Source: Ostreococcus lucimarinus
Lineage: Eukaryota
Direction: 5' to 3' (one strand)
NCBI GenBank assembly: GCA_000092065.1
Contig: CP000586.1
Length of the DNA: 64,000 nt
Program-made: the position numbers and the translations under genes
Notes under the pieces: model-generated
The model's database searches: none
Told to the model about the DNA's origin: nothing
What the model saw: only the letters and a program-made list of their open reading frames with translations
Shown here: positions 10,641 to 46,554 of the stretch, piece after piece
Layout of the letters: each line of letters opens with the position of its first letter
How positions within the stretch are numbered: the first letter of the stretch is position 1

Positions 10641-10739
10641 CGCGGTTGCTCGCGTTCGTTCGCGGCGGCCTTTGAATCACCTCGTCCTCCCCGAGCGCGC
10701 CGATCGGTCCGCACCGCGCCGCACCGCGGGCGCGCCGTC

Positions 10740-10880
10740 CGTCGGTTCGGCACGCCGCCGCCTCGCGTTCGTCCTCGCGTCGCGTCGGCGCGTTCGAGGT
10801 CGCGTCGCGTCGGCGCGGTCGTCCTCGCGTCGCGTCGGCGCGGTCGACCTCGCGTCGCGTCGTTCGCCGTCGTCGTCTCG
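10740..10880. repeat. Tandem ~22-24-bp GC-rich repeat (consensus ~GTCCTCGCGTCGCGTCGGCGCG, ~4 copies) in the divergent intergenic region between RPC8 and the cyclase gene
   Basis: Read directly: cgttcgtcctcgcgtcgcgtcggcgcgttcgaggtcgcgtcgcgtcggcgcggtcgtcctcgcgtcgcgtcggcgcggtcgacctcgcgtcgcgtcg. Confidence 0.7.
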
Positions 10881-11216
10881 CCCGCGTCGGCGTCGCGGTG
10901 TGCCATCCAACCGCGACGGGCGCCGACGCGCCGATGCGCCGATGCGCGCGACGACGGCCATCGCAATCGAACGCGAATGCGACTGCGTCAGAAGACGTCG
11001 GTGCGCGCGACGTCCCGTCGGACGGGACGCGCGACGCGTGGGATGGCGCCGACGCGACGACGCGGACGCCGACGCGGCGCGGGCGACGACGCGCGCGACG
11101 ACGACGCGGATGGGTGCGATTTCAGTCGACGGTTGGCGCGAGGCGCGACGACGACGACGAAATTGAAGACGAACGCGGTGACGAATGCGCGACGACGACG
11201 CGCGCGTGGACGCGGT

Positions 11217-14200
11217 ATGGCGTGGAGGGTGGTAGCGGTGATAACGTGCGCGACGTCGTGGACGTGGGCGACGGTGTCGGCGAACGCCGTGACGTTGATC
11301 GGCGCCGGCGCGTCCTTTCCGGCGAGCGTGTACGGAGAGGCGATGAGCGCGTACGCGCAGGCGACGGCGAACGTGACGGTGACGTATAACTCATTTGGAA
11401 GTGGAAGTGGATTGTGTCGAATACAAAACGCCAGCGTGGAGTGTACGGATAGTAAAGGCGTGGACGAGGTAGATTTCGCGTGCAGTGACGCGTTGTTGAA
11501 TGATACGGCGTACGCGGCGTACCCCGATTTACAGATGTACCCCGTCATCGCAGGAGCGGTGGCGTTGGTGTACAATCTCCCAGACTCTACGTATAGCGGC
11601 ACGGCGACGGTGCTTAAATTCCTTAAATTCGACGCCAACGCCTTGTTGGGGGTGTTTTTGGGAAATATCACGCGTTGGAACGACGCCGCGATAACGGCGT
11701 TGAATCCGACGATGACGCTTCCGAACGAGTTGATCAAAATAGTGGTGCGTCAAGACAGTTCTGGGACGACGGAGGCTTGGACAAGTGCTTTATCGACGAT
11801 GAATGCATCTTTTGCGAGCGGGGTGGGGACGTCAAAGCTACCCGACTGGTCCGCGGTGTTGTCGAGTTACGTGACGAGATCTCAAGGGATCGGTGTCACG
11901 TCCTACGTCAAGGCGACGAATTACTCGTTGGGCTATGCCGTTTTGGCTGACGCAAACGCGGTGAACGCATCCATCGCTGGTTACGTTCACGCAGGCACCT
12001 CAACAGCGGTGCTCCCAAACTCTGCGTCGATTTTGCAAGCCGTGAAGACGCGAGGATTGCAATTTGGCAACAACGGCGACAACCCGGTGCGCCTGACGGC
12101 CACCATCGCTCCGGTGCTCACGAATGCTTTAGCTTGGCCGTTTACGACGTACTCGTACGTCGTATTGCGGACTGGTATGGTTGGCTTCACGGAGAGCGAT
12201 CGATTACGAGCCGGGGCGTCTTGTGAAAACGTGAAGCAGACAGTGGCGTTCTGGAACTGGTTTCTCACGAGCGCACAATCGTCGCGAATCGCCGAACAAC
12301 ATGGCTTTGCTGCGATGCACGACGAAATAGGCGCGCTTGTGTCTGCAAGACTCATCGCAGATGTCTATTGTCAAGGGACTCGCGTCGCGGCTGTGACAAC
12401 ATCAACCACTGTACAGGCTATACAGGTCGGAGTCACTGCTCCAGTCACACTCAATAGGCTTCTGTACTCGTTACGCGCCCTGTACGAAGCGTACAATTCG
12501 AGCTCAACGCTCGCCATTAGAGAACTGACCACTGCGGAGGGCGCACTGGCAAATATCCTTGCCGATAACGGTATGGCGATTGGGATTGATTTGGTTGGCA
12601 CTCCTCTCGCCGCTCTATCAAGGCTACCGTTGTTCTCGATTGAGGCACGAATGGGACTGAATAAAGGTGTTCTTCAATTAGGAGCGACAGGGACGACTCT
12701 GGCGCTCGACTCTGTGGCCGTCGCGGCAATTTTAAGCGGCGACGCCACGACGTGGGGGCATCCCGAAATAGTGCGCTTGAACACCTTTTTAAACGGGGTA
12801 ACGGCACCAATCGTCTTGGCTGGCATTCTCGATCCCGAAGCAAATGCATTCTATCGCACTTACCTTTCACAACTGGTCACTGCAAACGCTTCTTTTACGT
12901 TGGCTACACCGAGCTTTCGTGGGTTGTCATATTCTGAAGTCGCTGCTTTTGTTGTTGAAACTCCAAGCTCGATCGCTTTTCTTCCTGGAGACGTAGTGAA
13001 TGCTTTTAAGCCTTATCTGTCGTCGTCGAGCGCGTTGAGTAACCTCGCGGCTACCCAAATGGATGTGTATTACAAACCAGTCAATAGCGGCGCAGAGTGT
13101 GGGGGGGCAATGCGCCAGGCGCTCAAATCCATGCTCAGCATGTTAGAATGGATGGCTTCCGACACCGATGTACAAGGTATTATTACAGAAGCTGGTGTGA
13201 CGCCATCGTTTGCCTCATCACCGGCTGTGCTGCAGACATTTTTATCGAATGTGCGAAGCGTGACGTGCAACGGCGTCTCCATTCTGAATCCACAAAATGC
13301 GCAGTCGTCGGCTGCGTTGAGTGTGAGTCCACTGATAATGGCCCTATCTGTTGGCCTTGGGTTGTTGACGTTCGCGATGTTCGCATTCTTTGGAGGGGCA
13401 CTGCTGAAAAGTTTATTTGTCCAGACAATTTTGAATCAATACAAGCGCTCGCATCCTCCAACCGATGCGGAAGTCACAATCGTCGTCACAGACGTCCAAG
13501 CTTCGACGCAGCTTTGGCAAAAAGCTTCGGTTCACATGAATCGGGCTCTTGCAATACACGACAAAATAATGCGGGCGGCGATTCATCAAACATTTGGTTA
13601 TGAGGTTTTGACGGAAGGAGACAGTTTTGTCATCGCGTTCCACTCTGCAGGAGATGCGCTCAAGTTCGCGATGCTGGTTCAAGAGCGCATGCAAAACTAC
13701 GCCTGGGACTCACCGCTCATTAGAGTGTGTAATGAAGTCTACGACGCGTACGACGCAGAAATCTTCGAGCAAGCTACACAAGGTCGCAACTTTAAGGCAA
13801 AGGAACTTTTACTCAACGCCGTTTCGAGTCGTAGAGTGATTCAAGAAGACACCATGTACGACGAAGGCGACGTGAGTACTCATGCTGGTAGAGGACAAAT
13901 GAATGCGTTTAGAGTTCCTCTCGGGGCGAAGGCTAGTCCCTTGAGTGAAATTCCTAAGATTCACGGTCTTCGCGTACGTATCGGCATGCATACCGGATTC
14001 TGTCAGAGCAGAACGCATCCCACGACGCGACGACGAGAATACTACAAGGGGGCCGTGACGATTGCCAGCGCCGTCTCCGATTGTGCCACTGGTGGTCAGA
14101 CTGTGATTTCAGGGGAAACAATGGCGGCGATACTAGGTGAGATCAAAGAAACGTCCCGAGCTTTCCATGCGCTTCACATGGGACGCCATCAAATGGGGTT

Positions 14201-16226
14201 GAACGCCAAAGAGCTGGATTTGACGGAGGCTGTCGACGAGAGAACCGTGCAAGTTGACGGCAAGGTTGGGCTGGACGACTCGTCAGCGCCTACTGACGAC
14301 GTCACGTTTGCGCTGACCACGGATAGCACAAGACTAAGATGGCGTGCGTCCGATTCTGAAACATCGACAGAGGAAGGCTCGTTGGAAGTGAACCCGGCGT
14401 ACCGCTACGCGCAAAACGCGAAAGTCTCAATCATAAAGAAGGTGGCTTACGATAAAATACACCAGACGAGTCTATTCCAGTCCGAGCTGGTGCAAGCCGT
14501 GCCGAAGTCGCTTGCAACTCGTTTGGCGTTATTCTCTAATCTGCGCACTGTGCGTCAATTGGAGCCATCTTATTATGATTCGCCAGGACTGAACGATATG
14601 AAAGTCACCATCGTTTTCACGTACATCGAAGGTTTGAAGGAACTCAGCGTGGCATTAAAGGACGTGATGGAAGACTCCGTGGGTCTTCTAAATGCGGCTG
14701 TGCGCGCCACGCTACCAGTTTTTAACGGTTACGAGTCTAGAGAATCAAATGGCGAATTTTTGCTCGCTTTCCACTCGCCCAATGATGCGTACAAATGGGC
14801 TCTTCTTGCTCAAAGCGCGTTCATGAAGCTCGACTGGCCGAAAAAACTGTTGACGCATCGGAGCGCGAGACGCATGCGCAATGGAAGACGCGACGTATTC
14901 TTTGGACTCCGCGTGGGGATGGGTGTATGTTCTGGTAAGTGTGCCGACATCAGACCATGTATCCGCACCGGACGCTCCGAGTATTTCGGTGCAATCTTGA
15001 ATTTTGCGTCGAGGGTTGCACGCAGCGCCAAAGGTGGGCAAATTTTAACAGATTATGAAACCTTGAAATCGGCCATTCAAAACGATTATGTGGTTGAATT
15101 TTGTCACGATCTAGGAATGTACCAATTTAAGGGCATCGACAACACCGTACGAGTCATTCAAGTCTCCGACGCGTCGCTGATGATGCGTTCTTTTGAGGAA
15201 ATTGACGCAATCCAAGTCGCACCGCCGGTTGGATTGGATGAAGATCGCGATTTAAGGTCGCAAACACGGAGTGACGATCGTTCAAGTGTATGTATTTTGT
15301 TGTGTACGGCTAAATCACCACTGATAAAGATTGTGCAGTCGTTGGTGCGAGCCATTCGTAAAGAGATACAAGTCGTCAGTGCGCAGAGGATCGACGACGT
15401 CGTCAGTCAATTAAGACATCGTAATTCAGCTGGCCTCATTCATAACCACATGGTGATTGTTTCTGATGAGATCGAACGTTTAGACGTCGTGGATGCTTGC
15501 CGACAAATCCGCAGAAAACTCAACTTGTTTATGCAGCCGAGGCTCGCAGTGTACGCTTCACTCCTAAACGATCTCGACGCTGAACAGCTCGGCATTGACT
15601 GCCTTTTGCCTACTTTGGATGCACCTTTTGACGCTAGTTCATCCCGCAATTCATATGTCGATGGTGATAGTGATTCGGAGTACGAAGAAGATATGATTGC
15701 GTTCAAACAAGTGGTTGAATCTTTCCTTTTGGGAGAAGCGAGCGAGAGTGGCTTGGGCGTCTTGCAAAGGCTGTCAGAATCAGGCGGTATTGCATCAGCA
15801 CCGACTCTTGAAGCGAATCAAAACGATGAGAAACTACCAACGTTCAAACAAGCGCCCGTGCCAACTCATAACAAGCCGCTTTTGAGCATGTCCAACATTG
15901 GGATGTTGACTACGACGCTTGAGGCGGTTTGCGCAAGAGCTTTCGCAATCGACGTGAATCAACAGCTCATATTTGCTACGCGCCGCGCCGTGAAGGCTGG
16001 TGTGGGCGCTTCTTCGGGACCACTTCCGCCATCAGACTGGCTATCTCGAGTAAGTACTGTCGCTGCGAAGGCGCAAAGGGGTATACTCCGTCAGTCTTGG
16101 GTTGAAACGATAAAAGGCAGTTGGCTCGACGAAAATTCAGAGGACGAATACGTCGACGCCGTGCACAAACCGATTCGTCTCGGCGATGATTTCGCAGTTG
16201 TTTTAGTGACTTTGCAAAGTCGTTGA
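11217..16226 (+). CDS. Receptor-type nucleotidyl cyclase. Layout: signal peptide, extracellular PstS-like phosphate-binding (type II PBP) domain plus a second degenerate PBP-like region, one TM helix, cyclase homology domain 1, cyclase homology domain 2, degenerate receiver-like domain (~1669 aa)
   Basis: ORF 10341..16226(+). Upstream of ATG 11217 is GC artefact overlapping RPC8. MAWRVVAVITCATSWTWATVSA is signal-peptide-like. PstS hallmarks: GAGASFPASVY…VTYNSFGSGSGL…VDFACSD…, ITRWNDAAITALNP, IKIVVRQDSSGTTEAWT, WPFTTYSYVVL. TM helix PLIMALSVGLGLLTFAMFAFFGGALL. CHD1: TIVVTDVQASTQLW…GYEVLTEGDSFVIAFHS (both metal-binding Asp present; the Asn/Arg pair is absent from the aligned GAVTIASAV segment). 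CHD2: KVTIVFTYIEGL…ESNGEFLLAFHS…RVGMGVCSGKC…SEYFGAILNFASRVARSAKGGQILTD (Asn/Arg present, metal Asp residues replaced). Receiver-like: CILLCTAKSPLIKIVQSLVRAIRKEIQVV…HMVIVSDEIERLDVVDACRQIRRKL…LLPTLDAPF. Confidence 0.8.
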   Translation: MAWRVVAVITCATSWTWATVSANAVTLIGAGASFPASVYGEAMSAYAQATANVTVTYNSFGSGSGLCRIQNASVECTDSKGVDEVDFACSDALLNDTAYAAYPDLQMYPVIAGAVALVYNLPDSTYSGTATVLKFLKFDANALLGVFLGNITRWNDAAITALNPTMTLPNELIKIVVRQDSSGTTEAWTSALSTMNASFASGVGTSKLPDWSAVLSSYVTRSQGIGVTSYVKATNYSLGYAVLADANAVNASIAGYVHAGTSTAVLPNSASILQAVKTRGLQFGNNGDNPVRLTATIAPVLTNALAWPFTTYSYVVLRTGMVGFTESDRLRAGASCENVKQTVAFWNWFLTSAQSSRIAEQHGFAAMHDEIGALVSARLIADVYCQGTRVAAVTTSTTVQAIQVGVTAPVTLNRLLYSLRALYEAYNSSSTLAIRELTTAEGALANILADNGMAIGIDLVGTPLAALSRLPLFSIEARMGLNKGVLQLGATGTTLALDSVAVAAILSGDATTWGHPEIVRLNTFLNGVTAPIVLAGILDPEANAFYRTYLSQLVTANASFTLATPSFRGLSYSEVAAFVVETPSSIAFLPGDVVNAFKPYLSSSSALSNLAATQMDVYYKPVNSGAECGGAMRQALKSMLSMLEWMASDTDVQGIITEAGVTPSFASSPAVLQTFLSNVRSVTCNGVSILNPQNAQSSAALSVSPLIMALSVGLGLLTFAMFAFFGGALLKSLFVQTILNQYKRSHPPTDAEVTIVVTDVQASTQLWQKASVHMNRALAIHDKIMRAAIHQTFGYEVLTEGDSFVIAFHSAGDALKFAMLVQERMQNYAWDSPLIRVCNEVYDAYDAEIFEQATQGRNFKAKELLLNAVSSRRVIQEDTMYDEGDVSTHAGRGQMNAFRVPLGAKASPLSEIPKIHGLRVRIGMHTGFCQSRTHPTTRRREYYKGAVTIASAVSDCATGGQTVISGETMAAILGEIKETSRAFHALHMGRHQMGLNAKELDLTEAVDERTVQVDGKVGLDDSSAPTDDVTFALTTDSTRLRWRASDSETSTEEGSLEVNPAYRYAQNAKVSIIKKVAYDKIHQTSLFQSELVQAVPKSLATRLALFSNLRTVRQLEPSYYDSPGLNDMKVTIVFTYIEGLKELSVALKDVMEDSVGLLNAAVRATLPVFNGYESRESNGEFLLAFHSPNDAYKWALLAQSAFMKLDWPKKLLTHRSARRMRNGRRDVFFGLRVGMGVCSGKCADIRPCIRTGRSEYFGAILNFASRVARSAKGGQILTDYETLKSAIQNDYVVEFCHDLGMYQFKGIDNTVRVIQVSDASLMMRSFEEIDAIQVAPPVGLDEDRDLRSQTRSDDRSSVCILLCTAKSPLIKIVQSLVRAIRKEIQVVSAQRIDDVVSQLRHRNSAGLIHNHMVIVSDEIERLDVVDACRQIRRKLNLFMQPRLAVYASLLNDLDAEQLGIDCLLPTLDAPFDASSSRNSYVDGDSDSEYEEDMIAFKQVVESFLLGEASESGLGVLQRLSESGGIASAPTLEANQNDEKLPTFKQAPVPTHNKPLLSMSNIGMLTTTLEAVCARAFAIDVNQQLIFATRRAVKAGVGASSGPLPPSDWLSRVSTVAAKAQRGILRQSWVETIKGSWLDENSEDEYVDAVHKPIRLGDDFAVVLVTLQSR

Positions 16227-16287
16227 AGTGCGTTTAGTTTTATTATACATTACCTAGTAAGATCACTTGTAGAACAATTGCGAGCGC

Positions 16288-16292
16288 TGTAA
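16288..16292 (+). promoter_or_regulatory. TGTAA polyadenylation-signal motif downstream of the cyclase gene, in the 77-bp convergent gap before tubulin cofactor D
   Basis: 'gcgctgtaaaagc' ~60 nt after the TGA at 16224-16226. Confidence 0.4.
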
Positions 16293-16302
16293 AAGCAATC
16301 AC

Positions 16303-19300
16303 CTAATAACCGGTATCTCCAACGAGCGACGCATACGTCGAGTTCTCTCTTTCATCCGCTCGTCGGTCCCGAAGTTTTCCCGAAGCTTTCAGCATGAAAG
16401 CTGGGAGGTCTAGTCCTAGTAAACTATAAATTATTTTGCGTGTTTCTTTCATGACACTCGGTGGTGCGTCCCACGAATTCAACGACAGGGTTTCAGCTGC
16501 GTTTTCAGTTCCCCGACTCGGTTCGGCGACAGCAAGGAGGGCAATGTACAAATGCTCCGCCGCTGCGCAACGCACGCGAGGGAAGCGGTTCGCCATGAGT
16601 GCGAGTAGCCCCATCGATGCTGATTCGTGAACGACGCTATCAGCAGCACCGACGAAGTGAGCCAGGCATGCGCTCCCAGTGACGAGCTTTGAAATATCTC
16701 TGCTCGAGAAACACTCACAACGAATAGCTTCGATGAGTTGAATCGCGTGCGTGTGCGCCTGATCCAACGCGCCGTGCGAAATTAGGGCATCGCACACTCG
16801 TAAAGCCGGTACCGTAACGCGATCAACGTGCTTGTTTTGACACAGATCTTGTATAATCGATGCCACAACAATATCTGGAAGGCCCTCAAACCGCCTAATC
16901 GCTCGTAACAACGCATCGGTCGAAAAGCGCACCAGACTGTCGCCTACACTTCCGCAACTCAGAAACCATCCGCTCAACGCGGCGTTGACGTACGCCTCTG
17001 CGCCGAGAACGGGAGTTAACGTCGCGAAAATTGTCGAGACATGGGAAGCATCTGGCGCTGTTTCGACAGTCGCTGGCAAGCAACATTGTAAAACATCGTA
17101 GTCTGGCACACCAGAGAGCGCGTGTACTGTTAGTTTGGCCTGCACTCGCATTCTAACTCGAATCGCGTCACCACCACGCACGAGCTGCACGAGCGTCACA
17201 AGCGCTTGACATCGAATGCGGTCGATTTTTTCGAATGCTTGCTTGAGAAGTGCTGTCATGATGTTTTGCGACTGATCTGCAGCTAAAGCATTGCGCATTT
17301 GCAAAGCGGCGACAAGCACAGGGAAGCATTTCATCGCCGATTCTCGCACCCACGAGCCGACGTCGCCACGGTTGTCAACGCTGTAGTCGCACAAACATCC
17401 GAGTAAAGTGGCGATCGCAGTGTCCGATACAAAGGCGATGTCGTCGTCATCGATATCATGGCACTCTGCACACATTAATTTCACACTCAGCTCCGAGAGA
17501 CTGATCGTTGCGTTCACCCGCGTCTCGGCGTCTCTCATTTCTACATCTTCTTCCGGTTTCGTGGCTACCGACAGCGCCGTGATGACCGCGCGCAGAGTTG
17601 CACTTTTATCTTCACTATTTTTCGCGGCGAGAAGACTTGTCACAGGAAATCCGCCTAATACGAGCGCCGATCCACGCCGCACGACACCTACGAGATCGTT
17701 GACGACGATTTCAGCGTGCCTCAATAGCAAGCAATGAGCACGGTGAGATCCACGCGAAGCGTAATTCGTCTCTGTAAATGCGGCGATGGCGTCTGAGGCG
17801 GCAGCCTGTACGTCTCCGTTGCAGCACTGCAGACTCTCTTCCGCAAAGTAGACAAAGGCATCTGTCGCCTTCGAGTCAATCTTGTGATTCTCGTCGCAGC
17901 ACAAAAACACGCACTCAATGAGCCTACACGTCGCGCCACGCATTATTTCGCCGCCTTTTCCTTTGTACATCTTCTCCCTTTCCATACTTTGAACTAAATC
18001 GGCTACTCGTTCGAAACAGTCGTCTTCGAGTTTTGTTTTTGCACGCTGTGTCACGAGTAACATCTCACCGATCGAAAGCACAGCGCCGTGGCGCGTCGAC
18101 AAGTCAGAACTCGTCGCGCGCGACAGAACTGTTTTTATGCCTACGTCACCGATCCACTGCGGGTCTAAATTACCCAGAGCTCTGATTGTTTTCGTCGCGA
18201 GTTGCCGCGTGGCAAGTTCCCAGTGCGTGAGCTTCGTGTCCAACACGTGCTCGAGTAACGAACGCCTATATTCTTCAAACTGACAGATGAATGGTGCCAC
18301 CGTCAACGCAGCTCGGGTTCGCGATCCAAGCGAAAAGTAATCCGCCACGGTGACAATGTCGATGCCGTGAGGAAACTTGCCGAGCCGTCCGACGGCTTCT
18401 TGAAAGGCAGCGGATGCGGCTCGGCGACAATTAACTTCACGATCGAAACACGATATCATGAGAAGCCTCGGTGCAAGTTGGTCGACAAAAGGTTCGAAAA
18501 CGCCCGGTTCATATGCGCGCGCAAACGCCCAACATACATATGCTGCCGCATCTCGCACGTGCGCACCGATTGAGTGCGCTCCTCGTCGAACGTCGTAGAT
18601 GAGAGCGTCCATGCATCGCGGTACGGCCTCCACCAATCTATTCGGCAACAACAATCCACGTCGAGCGAGCTCAGCCAGAGCTAAACATGCGCCGTGCCAA
18701 GTTGAATCGCTTTCGATAACCGATAAGCACGCCAAAACCGCTCCAACGACTTCGTCACCAAAATCACGCGGGAGTCGAGAGCTAATTCTCCCCAACGCTT
18801 TCGCCGATGTCCAGCGTACGATAGTCTCCGCATCTCGCAAACCGACGAGACATATTTCAACAATATCATCAACAGCCATGTGCACGTCGCATTTATCATC
18901 TTCGTCCGCCGCCGTGGTGAGTTGCTTCGTCGGCGGCTTTTGCATCGCCCCGCTCAAGTTATCTTGCAAACACCGCGCACCACGATCATATCGCCACGAC
19001 ACCACTCGAGGTTTCATAAAAACCAAACCCACGCGACTGGCGAGCTTGATACTCAGTTGTCTCACCATGGTCGAGCGTTTCGCCAAACTTAGCCGCGTCG
19101 CGCAATACTGCGCGTCGTCCCAGTTTCCCTCCGCGTACGGCAGCAACTGCTCTCGAGATCCAATCTTGTATATCGCCGCGAGCGCCCGCAGTACACCCGG
19201 TACTAAGAAAATCATTTCTCTTTCCTTTTCATCATTGACGTCTCCACGAAGCGTCGCGCTCGACCAGGTCATGAACTCGCGCAACGCCTCGCTCATGTCC

Positions 19301-19989
19301 GGTCGCGTGAGAAGCTTGGCGAGCGTTTGCGCCGCCACGTCGCGCACCGCGGACGGATCGCCTAAAAAGTGCTTGCACTCTCGCATCAAATCACTCACGA
19401 CGCTCGGAATTTTCGAACGCGACGAATGCGGATCGATCGCGCTATCGATCGACACCAAGTCAAACGGCGCCAACGCCAAAATCGACAACCAACTCGTGAG
19501 CACGCGTTGCGTTTCCCACGTATTGTCTCCACGCACTCGCGCTTCCCGCAGCAGACGCACCGCCGGCTCTAAATACTTCGCCGCGTTCGGATAGAACCGC
19601 ACGCACGTCTTCCATCCGCGCACGCTCGACAGCGCATCCAGCGCCCTGCAGCACGCGTTCGCGTTCGCCTTCGCGTTCGCGTTCTCGTTTTCGTTTTCGT
19701 TCGCCTCCGTCGACGCTCGCGCCACCGCGTCCATCAAAGGCTCGATCACGCCCCCCAGCATCGGATCCAGCACCGTCGGCTGTTCTCTATACTTTTCAAT
19801 CACTCCCACGAACGCCCGCACGTCGTCTTCGTCCGCGGCGTCGTCTTCTTCGTCGCGTCCACGCGCGCTTCGCCGAGTCAACGCGCGAACGATGGCATCC
19901 ATCGCGTCGCCGTCTGCCGCGACGTCCACGCGCGACGTCGCGCGCTCGCGACGACGCGCGTCATCACCCTCACCCTCGCGCGTCCCCAT
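16303..19989 (-). CDS. TBCD: Tubulin-specific chaperone D (tubulin folding cofactor D; HEAT/ARM repeat protein, 1228 aa)
   Basis: Size and all-helical HEAT architecture match TBCD. The N-terminal segment VRAFVGVIEKYREQPTVLDPMLGGVIEPLMDAV matches the conserved TBCD IMDKYQEQPHLLDRHLEWM region. ATG confirmed at 19989. Confidence 0.85.
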   Translation of the reverse strand: MGTREGEGDDARRRERATSRVDVAADGDAMDAIVRALTRRSARGRDEEDDAADEDDVRAFVGVIEKYREQPTVLDPMLGGVIEPLMDAVARASTEANENENENANAKANANACCRALDALSSVRGWKTCVRFYPNAAKYLEPAVRLLREARVRGDNTWETQRVLTSWLSILALAPFDLVSIDSAIDPHSSRSKIPSVVSDLMRECKHFLGDPSAVRDVAAQTLAKLLTRPDMSEALREFMTWSSATLRGDVNDEKEREMIFLVPGVLRALAAIYKIGSREQLLPYAEGNWDDAQYCATRLSLAKRSTMVRQLSIKLASRVGLVFMKPRVVSWRYDRGARCLQDNLSGAMQKPPTKQLTTAADEDDKCDVHMAVDDIVEICLVGLRDAETIVRWTSAKALGRISSRLPRDFGDEVVGAVLACLSVIESDSTWHGACLALAELARRGLLLPNRLVEAVPRCMDALIYDVRRGAHSIGAHVRDAAAYVCWAFARAYEPGVFEPFVDQLAPRLLMISCFDREVNCRRAASAAFQEAVGRLGKFPHGIDIVTVADYFSLGSRTRAALTVAPFICQFEEYRRSLLEHVLDTKLTHWELATRQLATKTIRALGNLDPQWIGDVGIKTVLSRATSSDLSTRHGAVLSIGEMLLVTQRAKTKLEDDCFERVADLVQSMEREKMYKGKGGEIMRGATCRLIECVFLCCDENHKIDSKATDAFVYFAEESLQCCNGDVQAAASDAIAAFTETNYASRGSHRAHCLLLRHAEIVVNDLVGVVRRGSALVLGGFPVTSLLAAKNSEDKSATLRAVITALSVATKPEEDVEMRDAETRVNATISLSELSVKLMCAECHDIDDDDIAFVSDTAIATLLGCLCDYSVDNRGDVGSWVRESAMKCFPVLVAALQMRNALAADQSQNIMTALLKQAFEKIDRIRCQALVTLVQLVRGGDAIRVRMRVQAKLTVHALSGVPDYDVLQCCLPATVETAPDASHVSTIFATLTPVLGAEAYVNAALSGWFLSCGSVGDSLVRFSTDALLRAIRRFEGLPDIVVASIIQDLCQNKHVDRVTVPALRVCDALISHGALDQAHTHAIQLIEAIRCECFSSRDISKLVTGSACLAHFVGAADSVVHESASMGLLALMANRFPRVRCAAAEHLYIALLAVAEPSRGTENAAETLSLNSWDAPPSVMKETRKIIYSLLGLDLPAFMLKASGKLRDRRADERENSTYASLVGDTGY

Positions 19990-20246
19990 CGCCGACGCCA
20001 GACGCGCGTGCGCGGCGCCTAGTCCGCCGCGCGCGCGTCTGGCGATGACGCGTGTGGCGGTTGGCGCGTTCGGGCGCGCGGCGCGCGCGCGCGCGGCGGA
20101 CTAGGGTTAGAGCTTGGAGTCAACGCGCGCGCGCGAAAGGATGGACCGTCGCGATCGGACGTGCTTTTATACAATTCTAAACGCTCGCCGCGCTCGCGCG
20201 CTCGCGCGCGTCCGCGGCGGCGCGATTCAAACGCCGCGCGGCGACG

Positions 20247-41828: not shown

Positions 41829-43031
41829 CTACATCGTGAAATTTGACACAGGAATGATGATTTCGTTTCGCCTGAGGAACGGGTTCGTGAATGGATCGTT
41901 GTACTGCGCCAACGCGGCGGCGCCGCTCGCCTCCAAACCGTCGTTCTCGATCAATTTTCGCAACTGCTTCTCCACGTCACGAGCCGCCTCCTCGGTCGCG
42001 ACGCCAGAAAATTTCTTAGCGACAAAAATACCGCCACTTTCTTCCCGCAACACTACGTTTTCATTCGTGCTCGCTGGGAGCGCGTCCACGGAGTCGCCGC
42101 TCACGACAAATTGCATCGTGGCGTTCTTCGTAAACACAGGCGTCGTCATCTCCATTTTCGTCCCACTCGCGTTGGCTTGGCCGAAGATGTAACCCGCCAA
42201 AGAATTAAAAGCTTGGCCCGCGACTTGACCGTTCATTTTTGCGCTGCTCGACGACACTTCCTTGACGTTCAGACCCGGACCCGTGGCGGCGACCAAGTAC
42301 GGCTCGTATCGTCGCACTTCGTAATCGCGCCTCTTCTTCAGCACCACGTACCCTGGGGTGTCCAAATCCGGCGTCTGCGCGAAATCAAAAATCTGTTTCA
42401 GCACCTCCACCACGCCCTCCGCACTGAGATGCCTCTGATTCTCAATCGAATCCCACGTGTCCACGTGGCGCGTCACCTTCTTAGTCTCCTCGTCGATCCC
42501 CATGATGGACGTTCCCGTAAAAGTCAGCGTCGGTCTCCAAGCGAAAGGAAACGTCGGCAATCCCATCACCATCGTCCATCGCGTCGTGATCTCCCAAGGT
42601 CCGCTCTGATATATTTCATGCATCGCGTACGTCGGCGAGAACACCCGTCGCAGCATCTGAATGTTAAACGCGTACCCGTCGAACGAGTCGTACTTCGTCA
42701 GCGGGTCCTCGAACGACACGTCTTTCGCGTACAGCGACGGATCGATCCCCTCGTCGTCGAACAGGTGCGTCAGATCCTCCGCCAGCGCCTTTCGCATCCG
42801 CGCGGACTCTTCTTCATCCATTCCCTTCGCCGTCGATGACGTCGTCGTCGTCGCGCGCGTCGCCGTCGTCGTCCGGCGTCGCGCGTCGCGCGTCGTCGGT
42901 CGCGTCGTCCGTCGCGTCATCGCGCGCGTCGGTCGCGTCGTCATCGCGCGCATCGTCGTCGTCCGTCGTCCGTCGTCTGTCGTCGTCCGTCGCCATCCGC
43001 CATCCGCCGTCGATCCACGATTTTGCCTCAT
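41829..43031 (-). CDS. DUF2358-SOUL heme-binding-domain protein (plant HBP5-like architecture) with a Thr/Arg-rich presequence. The start is ambiguous (ATG at 43031 or internal MDEEES)
   Basis: DUF2358-like: YAKDVSFEDPLTKYDSFDGYAFNIQMLRRVF. SOUL: PGYVVLKKRRDYEVRRYEPYLVAAT, AFNSLAGYIFGQAN, KMEMTTPVFTK, QYNDPFTNPFLRRNEI. Confidence 0.75.
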   Translation of the reverse strand: MRQNRGSTADGGWRRTTTDDGRRTTTMRAMTTRPTRAMTRRTTRPTTRDARRRTTTATRATTTTSSTAKGMDEEESARMRKALAEDLTHLFDDEGIDPSLYAKDVSFEDPLTKYDSFDGYAFNIQMLRRVFSPTYAMHEIYQSGPWEITTRWTMVMGLPTFPFAWRPTLTFTGTSIMGIDEETKKVTRHVDTWDSIENQRHLSAEGVVEVLKQIFDFAQTPDLDTPGYVVLKKRRDYEVRRYEPYLVAATGPGLNVKEVSSSSAKMNGQVAGQAFNSLAGYIFGQANASGTKMEMTTPVFTKNATMQFVVSGDSVDALPASTNENVVLREESGGIFVAKKFSGVATEEAARDVEKQLRKLIENDGLEASGAAALAQYNDPFTNPFLRRNEIIIPVSNFTM

Positions 43032-43143
43032 TTTCGTCGATTTGGCGAGTCATGACTCGTCCCGAGTACCGTCGTCCGCCATCCGTCGCGCGCGGTGCCG
43101 AGTTCGTCGCGATCCGGGCACGCGCGCACATCGCGACGCCGCG

Positions 43144-43162
43144 ATGGTGCGGTCGCGCGCGC

Positions 43163-43193
<31 letters not shown>

Positions 43194-46100
43194 ACGCGAC
43201 GACGTCGACGCGCGCGCGCGGGTCGCGGACGGACGACGAGGGACGGACGCGCGCGAACGCGCGGACGACGGGCGCGGGTCACGGTTTCCGAGAGACGCGC
43301 GCGCGGCGACGCGCGCGGACGCGACGCGCGGGACGCGCGAGACGGCGCGGACGTCGACGCGAGAGGACGATGGAGACGACGCGCGAGTAGACGATGGGGA
43401 CGACGGCGACGCGGGACGCGCGCGGAGGGACGCGCGACGGCGAACGGTGATGCGGGCGAAGACGCGCGCGCGATTCGACGACGACGAGAGAGGCGAGGAG
43501 ACGTTGGCGGATTTCGCGTTCGGACGGGACGTCGCGACGCGAGAATGCGTTCCGGATTTTGTGAAGCGTCCGGTAGACGCGTGGGGACGCGCGCGCGGGA
43601 GAGGTGGACTCGACGCGGCGATGTATAGATTGTCGAACGCGATGGACGACGGCCGATTCGATCCGTCGAGTTTGCGAATTGAAGACGGCGATTTTTCAAA
43701 GATTAACGGTGAGTTTGCGAAGCAGTTTTGGAGAATTAAGATGCAGTTGATGGATTGCGTCGTGATGGTAAAGCACGGATCGTTCTATAACATGTTTGAT
43801 GTGGACGCCGACGCCGGGAAGGCGGTTGGACTTCAGCAGACGGGGACGAATTCAGGATTCATGCGCAAGGTTGGCTGTCGGGCGGAGTCGTTCGATACGT
43901 GGGCGGCTCGTTTACTCGCTCGTGGGTACACGGTTGCCCGGGTGGAACAGATGAGCGAAGCGGCGAGAGAGACCTCGGTGATGAAGCGGGAGTGTTGCGA
44001 AATATTGACTCCCTCGCTCGATCGCGGGCTGACGAACAACGAGCGCGCGAATTTCTTCATCACCATCGCGGGAAGCTCCGTGAAATCTTTGCACTCGTGC
44101 GACTATTTGGGTGTGTGCGCGGTTGACGCAGATTCTGGCACCGCCGCGTTGGGTGTCGTGACGCCTCAAGATCTGCACACCGTCTTGGTGCAATACGAGC
44201 CACGAGAGGTCGTGATTAGTGAACAGCTTTCTGACGACGCGAGAAAGATGCTCGTGTCGTACGTGCGTGAAGGCGGTGACGCGACAGACTGCGTTTTACG
44301 CGTTATAGAACGTGGCAAAGTGAAAAACCCGTCGATCGAGCGCTCGAACATTCTGAATTGGTTCAAATATCACACCGACGAGCCCGTTTCAAATATTCTT
44401 CAGGAAGCCACTGAGGCAGAGTTACGAGCCGTCGGCTTTGCGATGCGTCATCTCGCTTGGTGTGGTGTGTTGCAAGACGTCTTTTCTCGAACAAAGTTTA
44501 TGTCCATAGTGTCTGTTGAGCCAAGACGAACGAATGCTGAAGAAAACCAGTCGGCTTTTGCGCTCTCGCGCGAGCTCACGCACGTCATGCGACTCGATGG
44601 CGACGCGATCAAGAACTTGCACTTGCTCTATGGCGACACTGGGAAGACTACGGGTTCGCTCTACGAGTTTCTTAATCACACGTTTACCGCTCCCGGTCGT
44701 CGACGGCTGCGACAATGGCTTCTCCGTCCGCTACAAGATGTGCGCGCCATCGACGCTCGCCTGGACGTCGTGCGAGAGTTCTCCAACAATCACGTCTTGC
44801 TACAAACTTTCCGTGACAGACTCAAGCACTTCAAGTGGGACCACGAGCGACTTTTCGCAAAGTCGTGTCGATTGGCTATCAAGTGTACGAAAGTGTACAA
44901 TATCGTTCGATTCAATCAAACGTCGCCGTTGACGCAAGAAGACGAGATGGGTCTCAGAGAACTCGCGCCGAAAGGCGCGACGAAGCTCGAAGAGATTCTT
45001 ATCGACGCTGTGAATATGATTAGCTTTTGGGAAATGCACAAAAGCGCACTTGTTACATTTGTGGACTTGGTTCGCGCGTTGATCGAGATACGCGACGTGG
45101 TTTCCACCTTGAGTGAAATTGCAGAGCGTAACGTCTCCGTTGCGAGCTTACATCGCGACGTCGAAGACGCGATATCGTTTCTTCGTGAGTTGCGTTCGTG
45201 TCTAGAAGATAGACGGAAAGAAAACACGAAAAACAAAGAAAGATACATCGTTCCAAGCGCACTTGTGTTTCGTGACTACGGTGAGTTTGCGGCGGCGGCG
45301 GAGCGAGAGAGAGCGCAAGATCCAATAGTTCGAAAACACGCGCAGCGCCAACGGCGAGAACTGCTGAGAAACATTTACATTCCACTCAGCGATGATGACG
45401 AGCGAGACGATGAAGAGCAAGACGCGGCCGACCGCGCTGACTTAGCGGCGGCTAACGCATTTACTGAAGTGATGCATGCCTTTTACGAAGAAATCCCTCG
45501 TTTTGAACGAGTGGTGAGCGCCATGGCAGATTTAGACGTTTTACAAAGTTTTGCCACGTCTTGTGCGTCTTCAAGAGGTGCTGTTGGTTTCACTCGACCA
45601 CGTTTTACTACTGACACATCCTCGAGTACTTTAGAGCTCGTCTGCAGTTGGCACCCTCTACTCAAGCCGAGTATGGTGGACGACGCCAAGAGAATCACGC
45701 ATAACAGTGGCATCGTCGATAATGATGTATCGATGAAGACGCCCTTCGTGCTTCTTACTGGTCCTAATATGTCGGGAAAATCTTCCATACTACGCCAAGT
45801 TGCTATTATTGTCATCATGGCGCAAATTGGTTGCTACGTTCCCGCGGCATCTTGCGAAATCAGCGTGGCCGACGCTGTGATGACCCGACTTGGCGGCGAC
45901 GACAATTTCGCCAACGGCGTAAGCACATTTTTGAACGAAATGAAAAGTACGGCGAAAATCATGAACGACGTAACTTCGTCTACACTGGTCATACTTGATG
46001 AACTGGGCAGAGGTACGTCTACCTTGGATGGCTACTCGATCGCATTCGCGACGAGCCTTGAATTATGCTCTTGTGCTCAAGCTCCTCGCGTGTTGTTCGC

Positions 46101-46554
46101 CACGCACTACCACGAGTTGGACAAAGATTTGGCGAGACAAGAGATTGCGCGAGGTAAGTTTGTCACAAAGCACATAGACGTATCCAGTACTCGCTCAGGC
46201 GCGCTTAAGATGACGTATAAGCTCAAGAATGGTCCAGCACCTCTCGGATCGTGCGCGTTGAATGTCGCACGCCTCGCTGGCTTTCCTCCTGGAATTCTCA
46301 CCCGCGCTTCGCACGTCTCGCAAACCGTCACCTTCAAAGGGCGAGTTAAGGATAGCGGCTTCTCAAGATCCTCGTATGTACCGCCAAAGGCGTTACTAAG
46401 TAATGAAGAACATCTCATGCTTTCAGCGCTCCTGGGCGATCCCGCTCTGACCGGTGACGCCGATAGGCTCGGCGACGGCGTTGAGTGGTGCCGACGCTTC
46501 CATGCCCTGTGGCGGAAGTGCAACGATTTATCGAACCGCGCGAACGAGCCGTGA
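43144..46554 (+). CDS. MSH6: DNA mismatch repair MutS homolog, MSH6-like (~1136 aa from ATG 43144; an alternative ATG lies at 43450)
   Basis: MutS domain I (FWRIKMQLMDCVVMVKHGSFYNMFDVDAD…GYTVARVEQ), connector, lever and clamp regions. ABC ATPase domain with Walker A LLTGPNMSGKSSILRQVAIIVIMAQIGCYVPA, then STFLNEMKSTAKIM, LVILDELGRGTSTLDGYSIA, FATHYHEL. ORF 42661.. has a 5' artefact extension antisense to the SOUL gene. Confidence 0.85.

Follow-up and report, generated by a model that had tools for sequence, protein, structure and literature searches.

A PstS-type ectodomain joined to two complementary cyclase domains: a candidate phosphate receptor of Ostreococcus lucimarinus

The receptor cyclases of kinetoplastids, represented by ESAG4 and GRESAG4.1/4.3 of Trypanosoma brucei (1FX2/1FX4), have a type I layout, in which a binding-protein-like ectodomain is followed by one transmembrane (TM) helix and a cytosolic class III cyclase homology domain (CHD). 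Their ectodomain has a LivJ-like type I binding-protein fold, for which we know of no ligand, and their CHD, present once per chain, forms homodimers. In mammalian transmembrane adenylyl cyclases (tmACs) two CHDs divide the labour, one bringing the metal-binding Asp residues and the other the Asn/Arg and the substrate pair, with one active and one degenerate site as the outcome; these enzymes have 2x6 TM helices and no extracellular sensor. The control of an output by an ectodomain of binding-protein fold is also the logic of GC-A and other natriuretic-peptide receptors and of class C G-protein-coupled receptors (GPCRs), which carry ANF_receptor (type I) flytraps, GC-A having in addition a kinase-homology domain and a single homodimerising CHD. 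Bacterial PstS, finally, binds orthophosphate (Pi) in the periplasm and also gives input to PhoR/PhoB via PstSCAB. Here, we describe a gene at positions 11217-16226 (plus strand) of a 64,000-nucleotide stretch of Ostreococcus lucimarinus DNA (contig CP000586.1 of assembly GCA_000092065.1; the window), whose predicted product of 1669 amino acids (aa) joins a PstS-type ectodomain through one TM helix to two complementary CHDs, and may be a type I receptor cyclase sensing phosphate.

The order of parts in this protein, namely signal peptide, first and second binding-protein domains (PBP1 and PBP2), TM helix, CHD1, CHD2, receiver-like fold, acidic linker and PAS-like fold, is in our judgement nearly certain. 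A six-frame scan of the window gave an open reading frame (ORF) at 10341-16226 on the plus strand; from the ATG at 11217 it runs for 1669 codons with no internal stop, to the stop codon at 16224-16226. Every motif listed in a first-pass annotation, which had been made from the DNA letters without database searches, was found in this translation. A word-indexed search gave 10 further full-length proteins with both PBP_like_2 and Guanylate_cyc, six of them 50-58% identical and four 32-35% identical in the alignment (35-38% in BLASTP), and since the whole arrangement recurs in these 10 orthologs, it is not a matter of chance.

One could still suspect an annotation artefact, with a secreted PstS-like gene and a cyclase gene read through as a single ORF, and RefSeq indeed holds two models for O. 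tauri: XP_003079625.2 ('PBP domain, partial', 230 aa) and XP_003079620.2 ('Adenylyl cyclase class-3/4/guanylyl cyclase', 1415 aa). Such an explanation is, however, very improbable. The frame is free of stops over its 1669 codons, 11 orthologs from two genera share the junction of PBP2 with the TM helix, conserved and in frame, and both domains lie in one protein in a second O. tauri strain (RCC1115, model OUS48672.1 of 1531 aa, with part of the binding-protein region and the cyclase) as well as in O. mediterraneus (UniRef entry A0A7S0PPD2, 1564 aa); these two species were those named by cluster look-ups. Euglena transcripts likewise have PstS and CHD in one ORF, and a PstS domain with a TM helix and nothing after it would be odd. 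Because of the RefSeq split, the O. tauri reference annotation does not reveal the fusion. The continuity of the protein in 11 orthologs of two genera, its conserved synteny and the O. mediterraneus entry speak for the view taken in the first-pass annotation, that the ORF is no artefact.

The protein starts with a predicted signal peptide (11217-11288, plus strand, start codon included; aa 1-24, MAWRVVAVITCATSWTWATVSANA). This N-terminal signal-like sequence, already proposed in the first-pass annotation, has an A-x-A cleavage motif, A-N-A, before the predicted cut, and after cleavage the mature N-terminus would precede GAGASF by 4 residues, the spacing that mature E. coli PstS also has. It is followed by PBP1, a complete PstS-type domain (11289-12392, plus strand; aa 25-392) with an intact set of Pi ligands, a Cys-bracketed insert (C67-C76) and the motifs GAGASFPASVY (aa 29-39), SFGSGSG (59-65), RWND..I..LNP (153-165) and IVVRQDSSGTTEAW (175-188). 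PBP1 matched Pfam PBP_like_2 (E 6e-23) and, over practically the full model, the NCBIfam PstS family TIGR00975 (E 3.8e-49, model positions 2-307 of 315), and its matches in the PDB were PstS crystal chains of E. coli, Yersinia and other organisms (E 6e-24 to 1e-22).

In the HMMER alignment to 1IXH, all eight Pi-ligand positions of E. coli PstS are kept in the window protein, T10 corresponding to S33, F11 to F34, S38 to S62, D56 to D91, R135 to R178, S139 to S182, G140 to G183 and T141 to T184; D137, which tunes the Arg, corresponds to D180. The ligand columns are invariant in 11 orthologs, except for S/T at 33 and for E at 91 in the O. mediterraneus-type sequence. In PstS, the Asp equivalent to D91 serves to select protonated phosphate over sulfate. 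A PstS-type ectodomain, as suggested earlier from its motifs, is thus backed by both family E values and by the eight ligand positions. It differs from free periplasmic PstS in being tethered to a signalling enzyme, in its Cys pairs, glycosylation sequons and extra loop, and in implying no PstCAB partner. The TIGR00975 score, 167.5 bits, lies under the 205-bit trusted cut-off of NCBI for equivalogs, and because of this score and the different context we classify PBP1 as a PstS-family domain and not as an equivalog of the transporter subunit. In a surface segment of PBP1 at aa 132-138 (VLKFLKFDAN, window about 11610-11630), three residues are duplicated in tandem (LKF-LKF); the metagenomic allele P0001, 99% identical, reads VLKF---DAN there, and the segment is gapped in all other orthologs.

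The second, weaker binding-protein-like stretch noticed at first reading is PBP2 (12393-13301, plus strand; aa 393-695), a degenerate PstS-fold domain that includes ATTWGHPEIVRLN at aa 510-522. Taken alone, it had no Pfam match, even at E up to 10. Its kinship with PBP1 emerged from hhalign (probability 94.5%, E 7e-8), which aligned PBP2 to PBP1 residues of about 136-390 and placed its conserved C628/C684 pair on C336/C385. When AlphaFold2 (AF2) was run on the whole ectodomain with the 11-sequence alignment, PBP2 was modelled confidently, with a predicted local distance difference test (pLDDT) of 80-93, and Foldseek against the PDB returned phosphate-binding proteins, all of the PstS type, at each of its first 28 ranks (E 1e-13 to 1e-9, TM-scores 0.6-0.7). 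The 12-15% identity of these matches would fit the degenerate PBP2 rather than PBP1. The R-x-D-x-SGT phosphate motif, with its Arg and SGT, is replaced by 'ILDPEAN' in PBP2, and our reading is that this domain would be a duplicate with a dead binding site.

These features bear on the possibility that the ectodomain recognises another ligand, such as arsenate, phosphite/hypophosphite, pyrophosphate or a small phosphoester, or that it is PBP2 that binds the real signal. PBP2 is well conserved (e.g. ATTWGH.EIVRLN) despite the loss of its Pi motif, and therefore appears to be under selection for something; a lineage-specific Cys-bracketed insert lies beside the S62 loop, PBP1 scores under the equivalog cut-off, and some domains of the wider family described below have altered ligand positions. 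Nevertheless, we consider a different ligand unlikely, as the eight Pi-ligand positions and the D137 equivalent are kept in 11/11 orthologs, and the best matches in both sequence and fold are all orthophosphate-binding proteins.

On the other side of the TM helix, Pfam Guanylate_cyc matched the protein in two stretches (E 3.5e-18 for the whole protein; 66.3 bits against a cut-off of 21.9). CHD1 (13464-14141, plus strand; aa 750-975), matched also by itself (E 6e-15, 55.7 bits), is C1-like: it contains VVTDV (aa 756-760) and EGDSF (800-804), keeps D759 and D802, and has T948/A952 at the Asn/Arg positions. CHD2 (14598-15182, plus strand; aa 1128-1322) is C2-like, with TYIEG (aa 1135-1139), NGEF (1178-1181) and ILNFASRVA (1260-1268); its metal positions are Y1136/G1179, and R1175, E1255, N1262 and R1266 are kept. 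By itself CHD2 reached 19.5 bits in Pfam (E 8e-4), below the gathering score; hhalign related it to CHD1 with a probability of 99.2%. The linker between them (14142-14597, plus strand; aa 976-1127) matched no Pfam family and ends, directly before CHD2, in the conserved LVQAVPK..RL.LF..LRTVRQLEPSY.

For the catalytic positions, both CHDs were aligned to GRESAG4.1 and to the relatives described below, and the residues were tabulated over 11 orthologs. The first metal Asp is D759 in CHD1 (11/11) and Y1136 in CHD2 (Y in 7/11, K/R in 4/11); the second is D802 in CHD1 (11/11) and G1179 in CHD2 (11/11). At the remaining positions the canonical or near-canonical residue lies in CHD2 and was found in 11/11 orthologs each time: R1175 at the Lys position (L/I/F798 in CHD1), E1255 at the substrate Asp position (E/Q/V941), N1262 at the Asn position (T/P/E948) and R1266 at the Arg position (A/S/K/L952). 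A complete set of the metal Asp pair and the transition-state Asn/Arg is obtained only when CHD1 and CHD2 are combined. The six reciprocal positions are all non-canonical, and five of them differ between clades, G1179 being invariant. Selection for catalysis would be expected to leave such a picture, a composite site that is frozen while its reciprocal positions drift. The first-pass annotation had proposed such a complementary, C1/C2-type loss, and the presence of D759, D802, N1262 and R1266 in all 11 orthologs agrees with it; it was also right that CHD2 lacks both metal Asp residues, but not about where the second one is missing, since this position aligns to G1179 and not to E1180.

The substrate pair R1175/E1255 corresponds neither to the adenylate signature (K/D) nor to the guanylate one (E/C). 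Because this pair retains the charge pattern of adenylate cyclases, and because relatives carry K/D, cAMP seems a more likely product than cGMP. An alternative would be that the CHD pair is catalytically dead and acts as an interaction module, the whole being a Pi-binding surface protein or scaffold, for instance one that assists a Pi transporter in scavenging or as a transceptor. The non-canonical R/E pair, the Pfam score of CHD2 alone and the 79-aa insert in CHD1 could be cited in its favour, as could the degenerate receiver-like domain, by which the protein shows that it tolerates pseudo-domains. This alternative is nonetheless distinctly unlikely, for the six active-site residues are invariant across a divergence to about 35% identity, while the reciprocal positions mostly vary; moreover, the K-to-R and D-to-E changes preserve charge, and a two-CHD relative retains the canonical K/D/N/R. 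The CHD1 insert (window 13740-13976, aa about 842-920) comprises 79 poorly conserved residues, where GRESAG4 of T. brucei has 33 and CHD2 15; its position is, we believe, that of the kinetoplastid-specific subdomain, which we take to be a proposed regulatory site.

The comparison with kinetoplastids drawn in the first-pass annotation gained weight from the structural database, where GRESAG4.3/GRESAG4.1 were the best matches of both CHDs (CHD1 to 1fx4/1fx2, E 4e-18; CHD2 to 1fx4, E 4e-14), and the similarity to GRESAG4 reaches into the '..LDW..' segment ahead of the kinetoplastid insert. The window protein differs from these enzymes in its PstS-type (type II) ectodomain, with an intact Pi site and a degenerate copy, and in having two complementary CHDs and a tail of receiver-like and PAS-like folds, whereas the kinetoplastid proteins have one homodimerising CHD. 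The different ectodomain class and the presence of two CHDs place it outside the kinetoplastid family as defined. It shares its division of labour with the tmACs, but it has neither their 2x6 TM architecture nor their K/D pair, and its CHDs are not closest to those of tmACs. The C1/C2-type split probably arose independently, from a single CHD of kinetoplastid/euglenid type.

Plausible intermediates exist. Two transcripts of the euglenozoan Euglena gracilis and one metagenomic protein have the arrangement PstS-TM-single CHD with all six canonical residues in one domain, like the kinetoplastid enzymes, and the metagenomic protein P0202 has two CHDs that are split in the C1/C2 manner of the window protein, with canonical K/D/N/R in CHD2. 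Judging from their sequences, the single-CHD Euglena forms and P0202 mark a likely evolutionary path to the window protein.

The two halves of the protein are separated by a single TM helix (13320-13406, plus strand; aa about 702-730, PLIMALSVGLGLLTFAMFAFFGGALL), after which comes the basic stretch KSLFVQTILNQYKRSH. In agreement with the helix count predicted at first reading, the segment of aa about 698-733 is the only long one in which the hydropathy mean over 19 residues exceeds 1.6 (peak 2.26). N-x-S/T sequons number nine in the ectodomain and zero in the 934 residues after the helix, where 4.2 would be expected by shuffling, and six ectodomain Cys residues are invariant in the orthologs, with C89 near-invariant. 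The sequon split, the conserved Cys residues and the basic stretch after the helix indicate that the ectodomain should lie outside the cell (or in a lumen) and the cyclases in the cytosol. Signal peptide, sequons and Cys pairs show entry into the secretory pathway and not the destination, which leaves room for a sensor in the vacuole, the acidocalcisome or another endomembrane, reporting stored or luminal phosphate to the cytosol. We hold this to be quite unlikely, though the argument from relatives is a weak one: those with recognisable outputs resemble plasma-membrane receptors (class C GPCR seven-helix regions, TRP-like regions, kinetoplastid-type cyclases).

What the sequences show is the gene, its architecture, the conservation of its residues, the orthologs and the relatives; from these we infer a mechanism that covers placement at the surface, Pi binding, catalysis, and how and in which direction ligand and enzyme are coupled. 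The signal peptide would bring the N-terminal part of about 680 residues into the secretory pathway and most likely to the cell surface, where PBP1, working as a Venus-flytrap, would close on orthophosphate outside the cell and hold it, like bacterial PstS, through hydroxyl groups, an Asp and an Arg. PBP2, placed between PBP1 and the membrane, would be a probable spacer or relay. The TM helix would lead to the CHDs about 25 residues past the membrane, and CHD1 and CHD2 would pair within the chain as a pseudo-heterodimer that has one catalytic site, to which CHD1 would contribute the metal Asp residues D759/D802, and CHD2 the purine-contacting R1175/E1255 and the transition-state N1262/R1266. 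Occupancy of the phosphate site would then alter the synthesis of a cyclic nucleotide, cAMP being likelier than cGMP, and the pseudo-receiver and PAS-like folds would probably act in cytosolic regulation, dimerisation or oligomerisation. For this mechanism as a whole, that of a type I receptor cyclase sensing phosphate, we see the chances as evenly balanced.

Several points weigh against it. Next to the sub-threshold scores of PBP1 and of CHD2 alone and the R/E substrate pair, the AF2 model of PBP1 was poor (pLDDT 22-65), presumably due to the 11-row alignment, and the phosphate site stands on the sequence alignment. No phosphate-related gene adjoins the receptor gene, and its GC content at third codon positions (GC3), the lowest among the window genes measured, could mean that this long receptor gene has a weak codon bias or is little expressed. 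The weak point of the mechanism is the route of the signal through a single TM helix, as a pseudo-heterodimer made of one chain needs no ligand-driven dimerisation. Ligand-dependent oligomerisation with domain swapping between chains might be imagined here, as pure speculation.

Ectodomains of this type are not confined to cyclases. An exhaustive profile search with the ectodomain gave 9734 proteins with E values up to 1e-3, of which 743 had values of 1e-30 or lower. A Pfam scan, limited to 43 long top matches of this search, found PBP_like_2 in all 43 proteins, 7tm_3 (class C GPCR) in 19, Guanylate_cyc in four (the three single-CHD proteins and P0202 described above), Ephrin_rec_like in three, TRP in two and PDEase_I in one. 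Named sources include Euglena gracilis, E. longa, Tetraselmis astigmatica, Chromosphaera perkinsii, Palpitomonas bilix and Plasmodiophora brassicae. Of 37 PBP1-type domains, taken from 34 other receptor proteins of eukaryotes, 22 had the complete Pi-ligand signature. One may tentatively propose, with more doubt than confidence, that the window protein is a direct cell-surface Pi receptor of Mamiellophyceae and one output of a widespread, uncharacterised family of eukaryotic PstS-flytrap receptors, which would form a general protist Pi-sensing system; class C GPCRs, cyclases, TRP-like proteins and a phosphodiesterase would be its outputs, and euglenids, chlorophytes, Plasmodiophora, chytrids, ichthyosporeans and Palpitomonas its hosts. 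PstS-type domains on a class C GPCR scaffold have been mentioned in passing for the chytrid Spizellomyces (PMC3251606), and the PstS-type/class C GPCR proteins of Plasmodiophora, also in passing, were termed putative transporters (PMC4815078).

The variety of forms in this family is considerable. A protein of 2386 aa from the ichthyosporean Chromosphaera perkinsii (among P0188, P0224 and P0228) combines four PstS-type domains in tandem with Ephrin_rec_like repeats and a multi-TM region of TRP-like character. Four PstS-type domains occur in other representatives too, one protein has an ANF_receptor domain, and another a PARP/WWE combination.

How eukaryotic phytoplankton perceives external phosphate is largely an open question, and we know of no identified phosphate sensor in diatoms. 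Ostreococcus and Bathycoccus are abundant picoalgae, and O. tauri, in which homologous recombination is available, is genetically tractable. Being single-copy and linking an intact PstS phosphate site with a cyclase, the receptor gene offers a concrete candidate external-Pi receptor for knockout, with simple readouts in Pi binding and in cAMP/cGMP levels. A sensing module of wider use is suggested by the many protists in which this ectodomain sits on GPCR, channel-like or phosphodiesterase scaffolds, and the C1/C2-like sharing of tasks by the two cyclase domains apparently has an independent origin here. Diatoms were found to show a Ca2+ signal after phosphate resupply (bioRxiv 10.1101/2020.05.13.090282), and P-Ca2+ signalling has, according to the discussion of another paper, not been seen in other photosynthetic eukaryotes (PMC13187674). 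A Chloropicon paper mentions expanded guanylate cyclases only. In full-text literature on Micromonas, Ostreococcus and phytoplankton, no paper on a PstS-cyclase fusion or on its role in phosphate sensing was found, in line with the statement in the first-pass annotation that no PstS-ectodomain cyclase had been described. Sequences of the family are already public under automatic domain labels, such as 'ABC-type phosphate transport system substrate-binding protein/class 3 adenylate cyclase', which the JGI pipeline has given to part of them.

In the AF2 model of the protein's tail (aa 1325-1669), two domains are predicted with confidence, and an acidic linker, disordered in the model, lies between them. 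The first of the domains (15276-15617, plus strand; aa about 1354-1467) has a CheY-like (beta/alpha)5 fold. In a manual alignment to the receiver consensus it has no acidic pair after beta1, the acceptor-position D1417 is present in 6/11 orthologs (D/N/T/S at the site), and the Lys position is Leu in 11/11 (L1464). The receiver-like part had no Pfam Response_reg match, even at E up to 10, and the best response regulator in a PDB profile search, a single entry, reached E 0.46. The degenerate receiver suggested at first reading, where the acidic pair was noted as missing, is thus recognisable in the fold, with the Lys absent as well, and is at best a pseudo-receiver. The acidic linker (15618-15884, plus strand; aa 1468-1556), which includes SRNSYVDGDSDSEYEED, is predicted to be disordered (pLDDT 30-49) and is poorly conserved, variable in length and of low complexity in the orthologs. 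The protein does not end with the receiver-like fold, as had been assumed, but with an additional domain (15885-16226, plus strand, stop codon included; aa about 1557-1669) that has a PAS-like fold. The C-terminal 340 aa, searched whole and as halves, gave no Pfam match at E up to 10. Top PDB profile matches of the tail and of its receiver-like and PAS-like parts (Mad2, PCNA, TBP poly-Q) were non-significant and were treated as chance.

In the protein collection searched, the exact 1669-aa protein was not found, and the nearest match was a metagenomic version of 1659 aa, 99% identical. Cluster representatives were often fragments, such as P0187, a 468-aa piece from the more distant clade. This clade, at about 35% identity, is represented by a contig of 0.469 GC (P0009 locus, L002 1-22165), and on account of this GC content it is probably Bathycoccus. 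Genes for malate/lactate dehydrogenase (MDH) and Rpc25 flank the receptor gene both in Ostreococcus and in the low-GC clade, and because of these matching neighbours we regard the genes of this clade as orthologs. The order and orientation of MDH and Rpc25 differ between the low-GC clade and window 7000-20000 / L001. The first-pass annotation had pointed to other Mamiellophyceae and to prasinoviruses as places where orthologs might occur; they were found in Ostreococcus and the probable Bathycoccus, but a search of IMG/VR with the ectodomain profile gave no prasinovirus or other viral relative.

In the window, the receptor gene adjoins the Rpc25 (RNA polymerase III) gene at 10014-10640 on the minus strand, whose protein is identical to XP_001418348.1 of O. 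lucimarinus CCE9901. Two in-frame ATGs further upstream, at 10977 and 11043, were rejected as starts, since they lie in non-conserved, Arg-rich, intergenic-like DNA. The ATG at 11217 is the most likely start because the DNA around those upstream codons has a GC content of 0.71, like other intergenic spikes of the window, and no ATG comes earlier once this GC-rich stretch has ended. An upstream start would merely convert the signal peptide into a signal anchor, with the topology unchanged. On both strands of window 10261-11737, several ORFs of 115-250 aa overlap the 5' end of the gene and the region upstream; their translations are rich in Arg and Ala, as expected for GC-rich DNA read out of frame, and they are almost certainly not genes. 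The receptor gene has a GC content of 0.519 and a GC3 of 0.556, the lowest of ten window genes measured, the others having GC3 values of 0.59-0.79, and the GC content of the intergenic DNA on its flanks rises to 0.70-0.71. Horizontal transfer was considered as a reason for the low GC of the gene; other long genes of the window, TBCD (16303-19989) and the gene at 42661-46554, are GC-poor as well.

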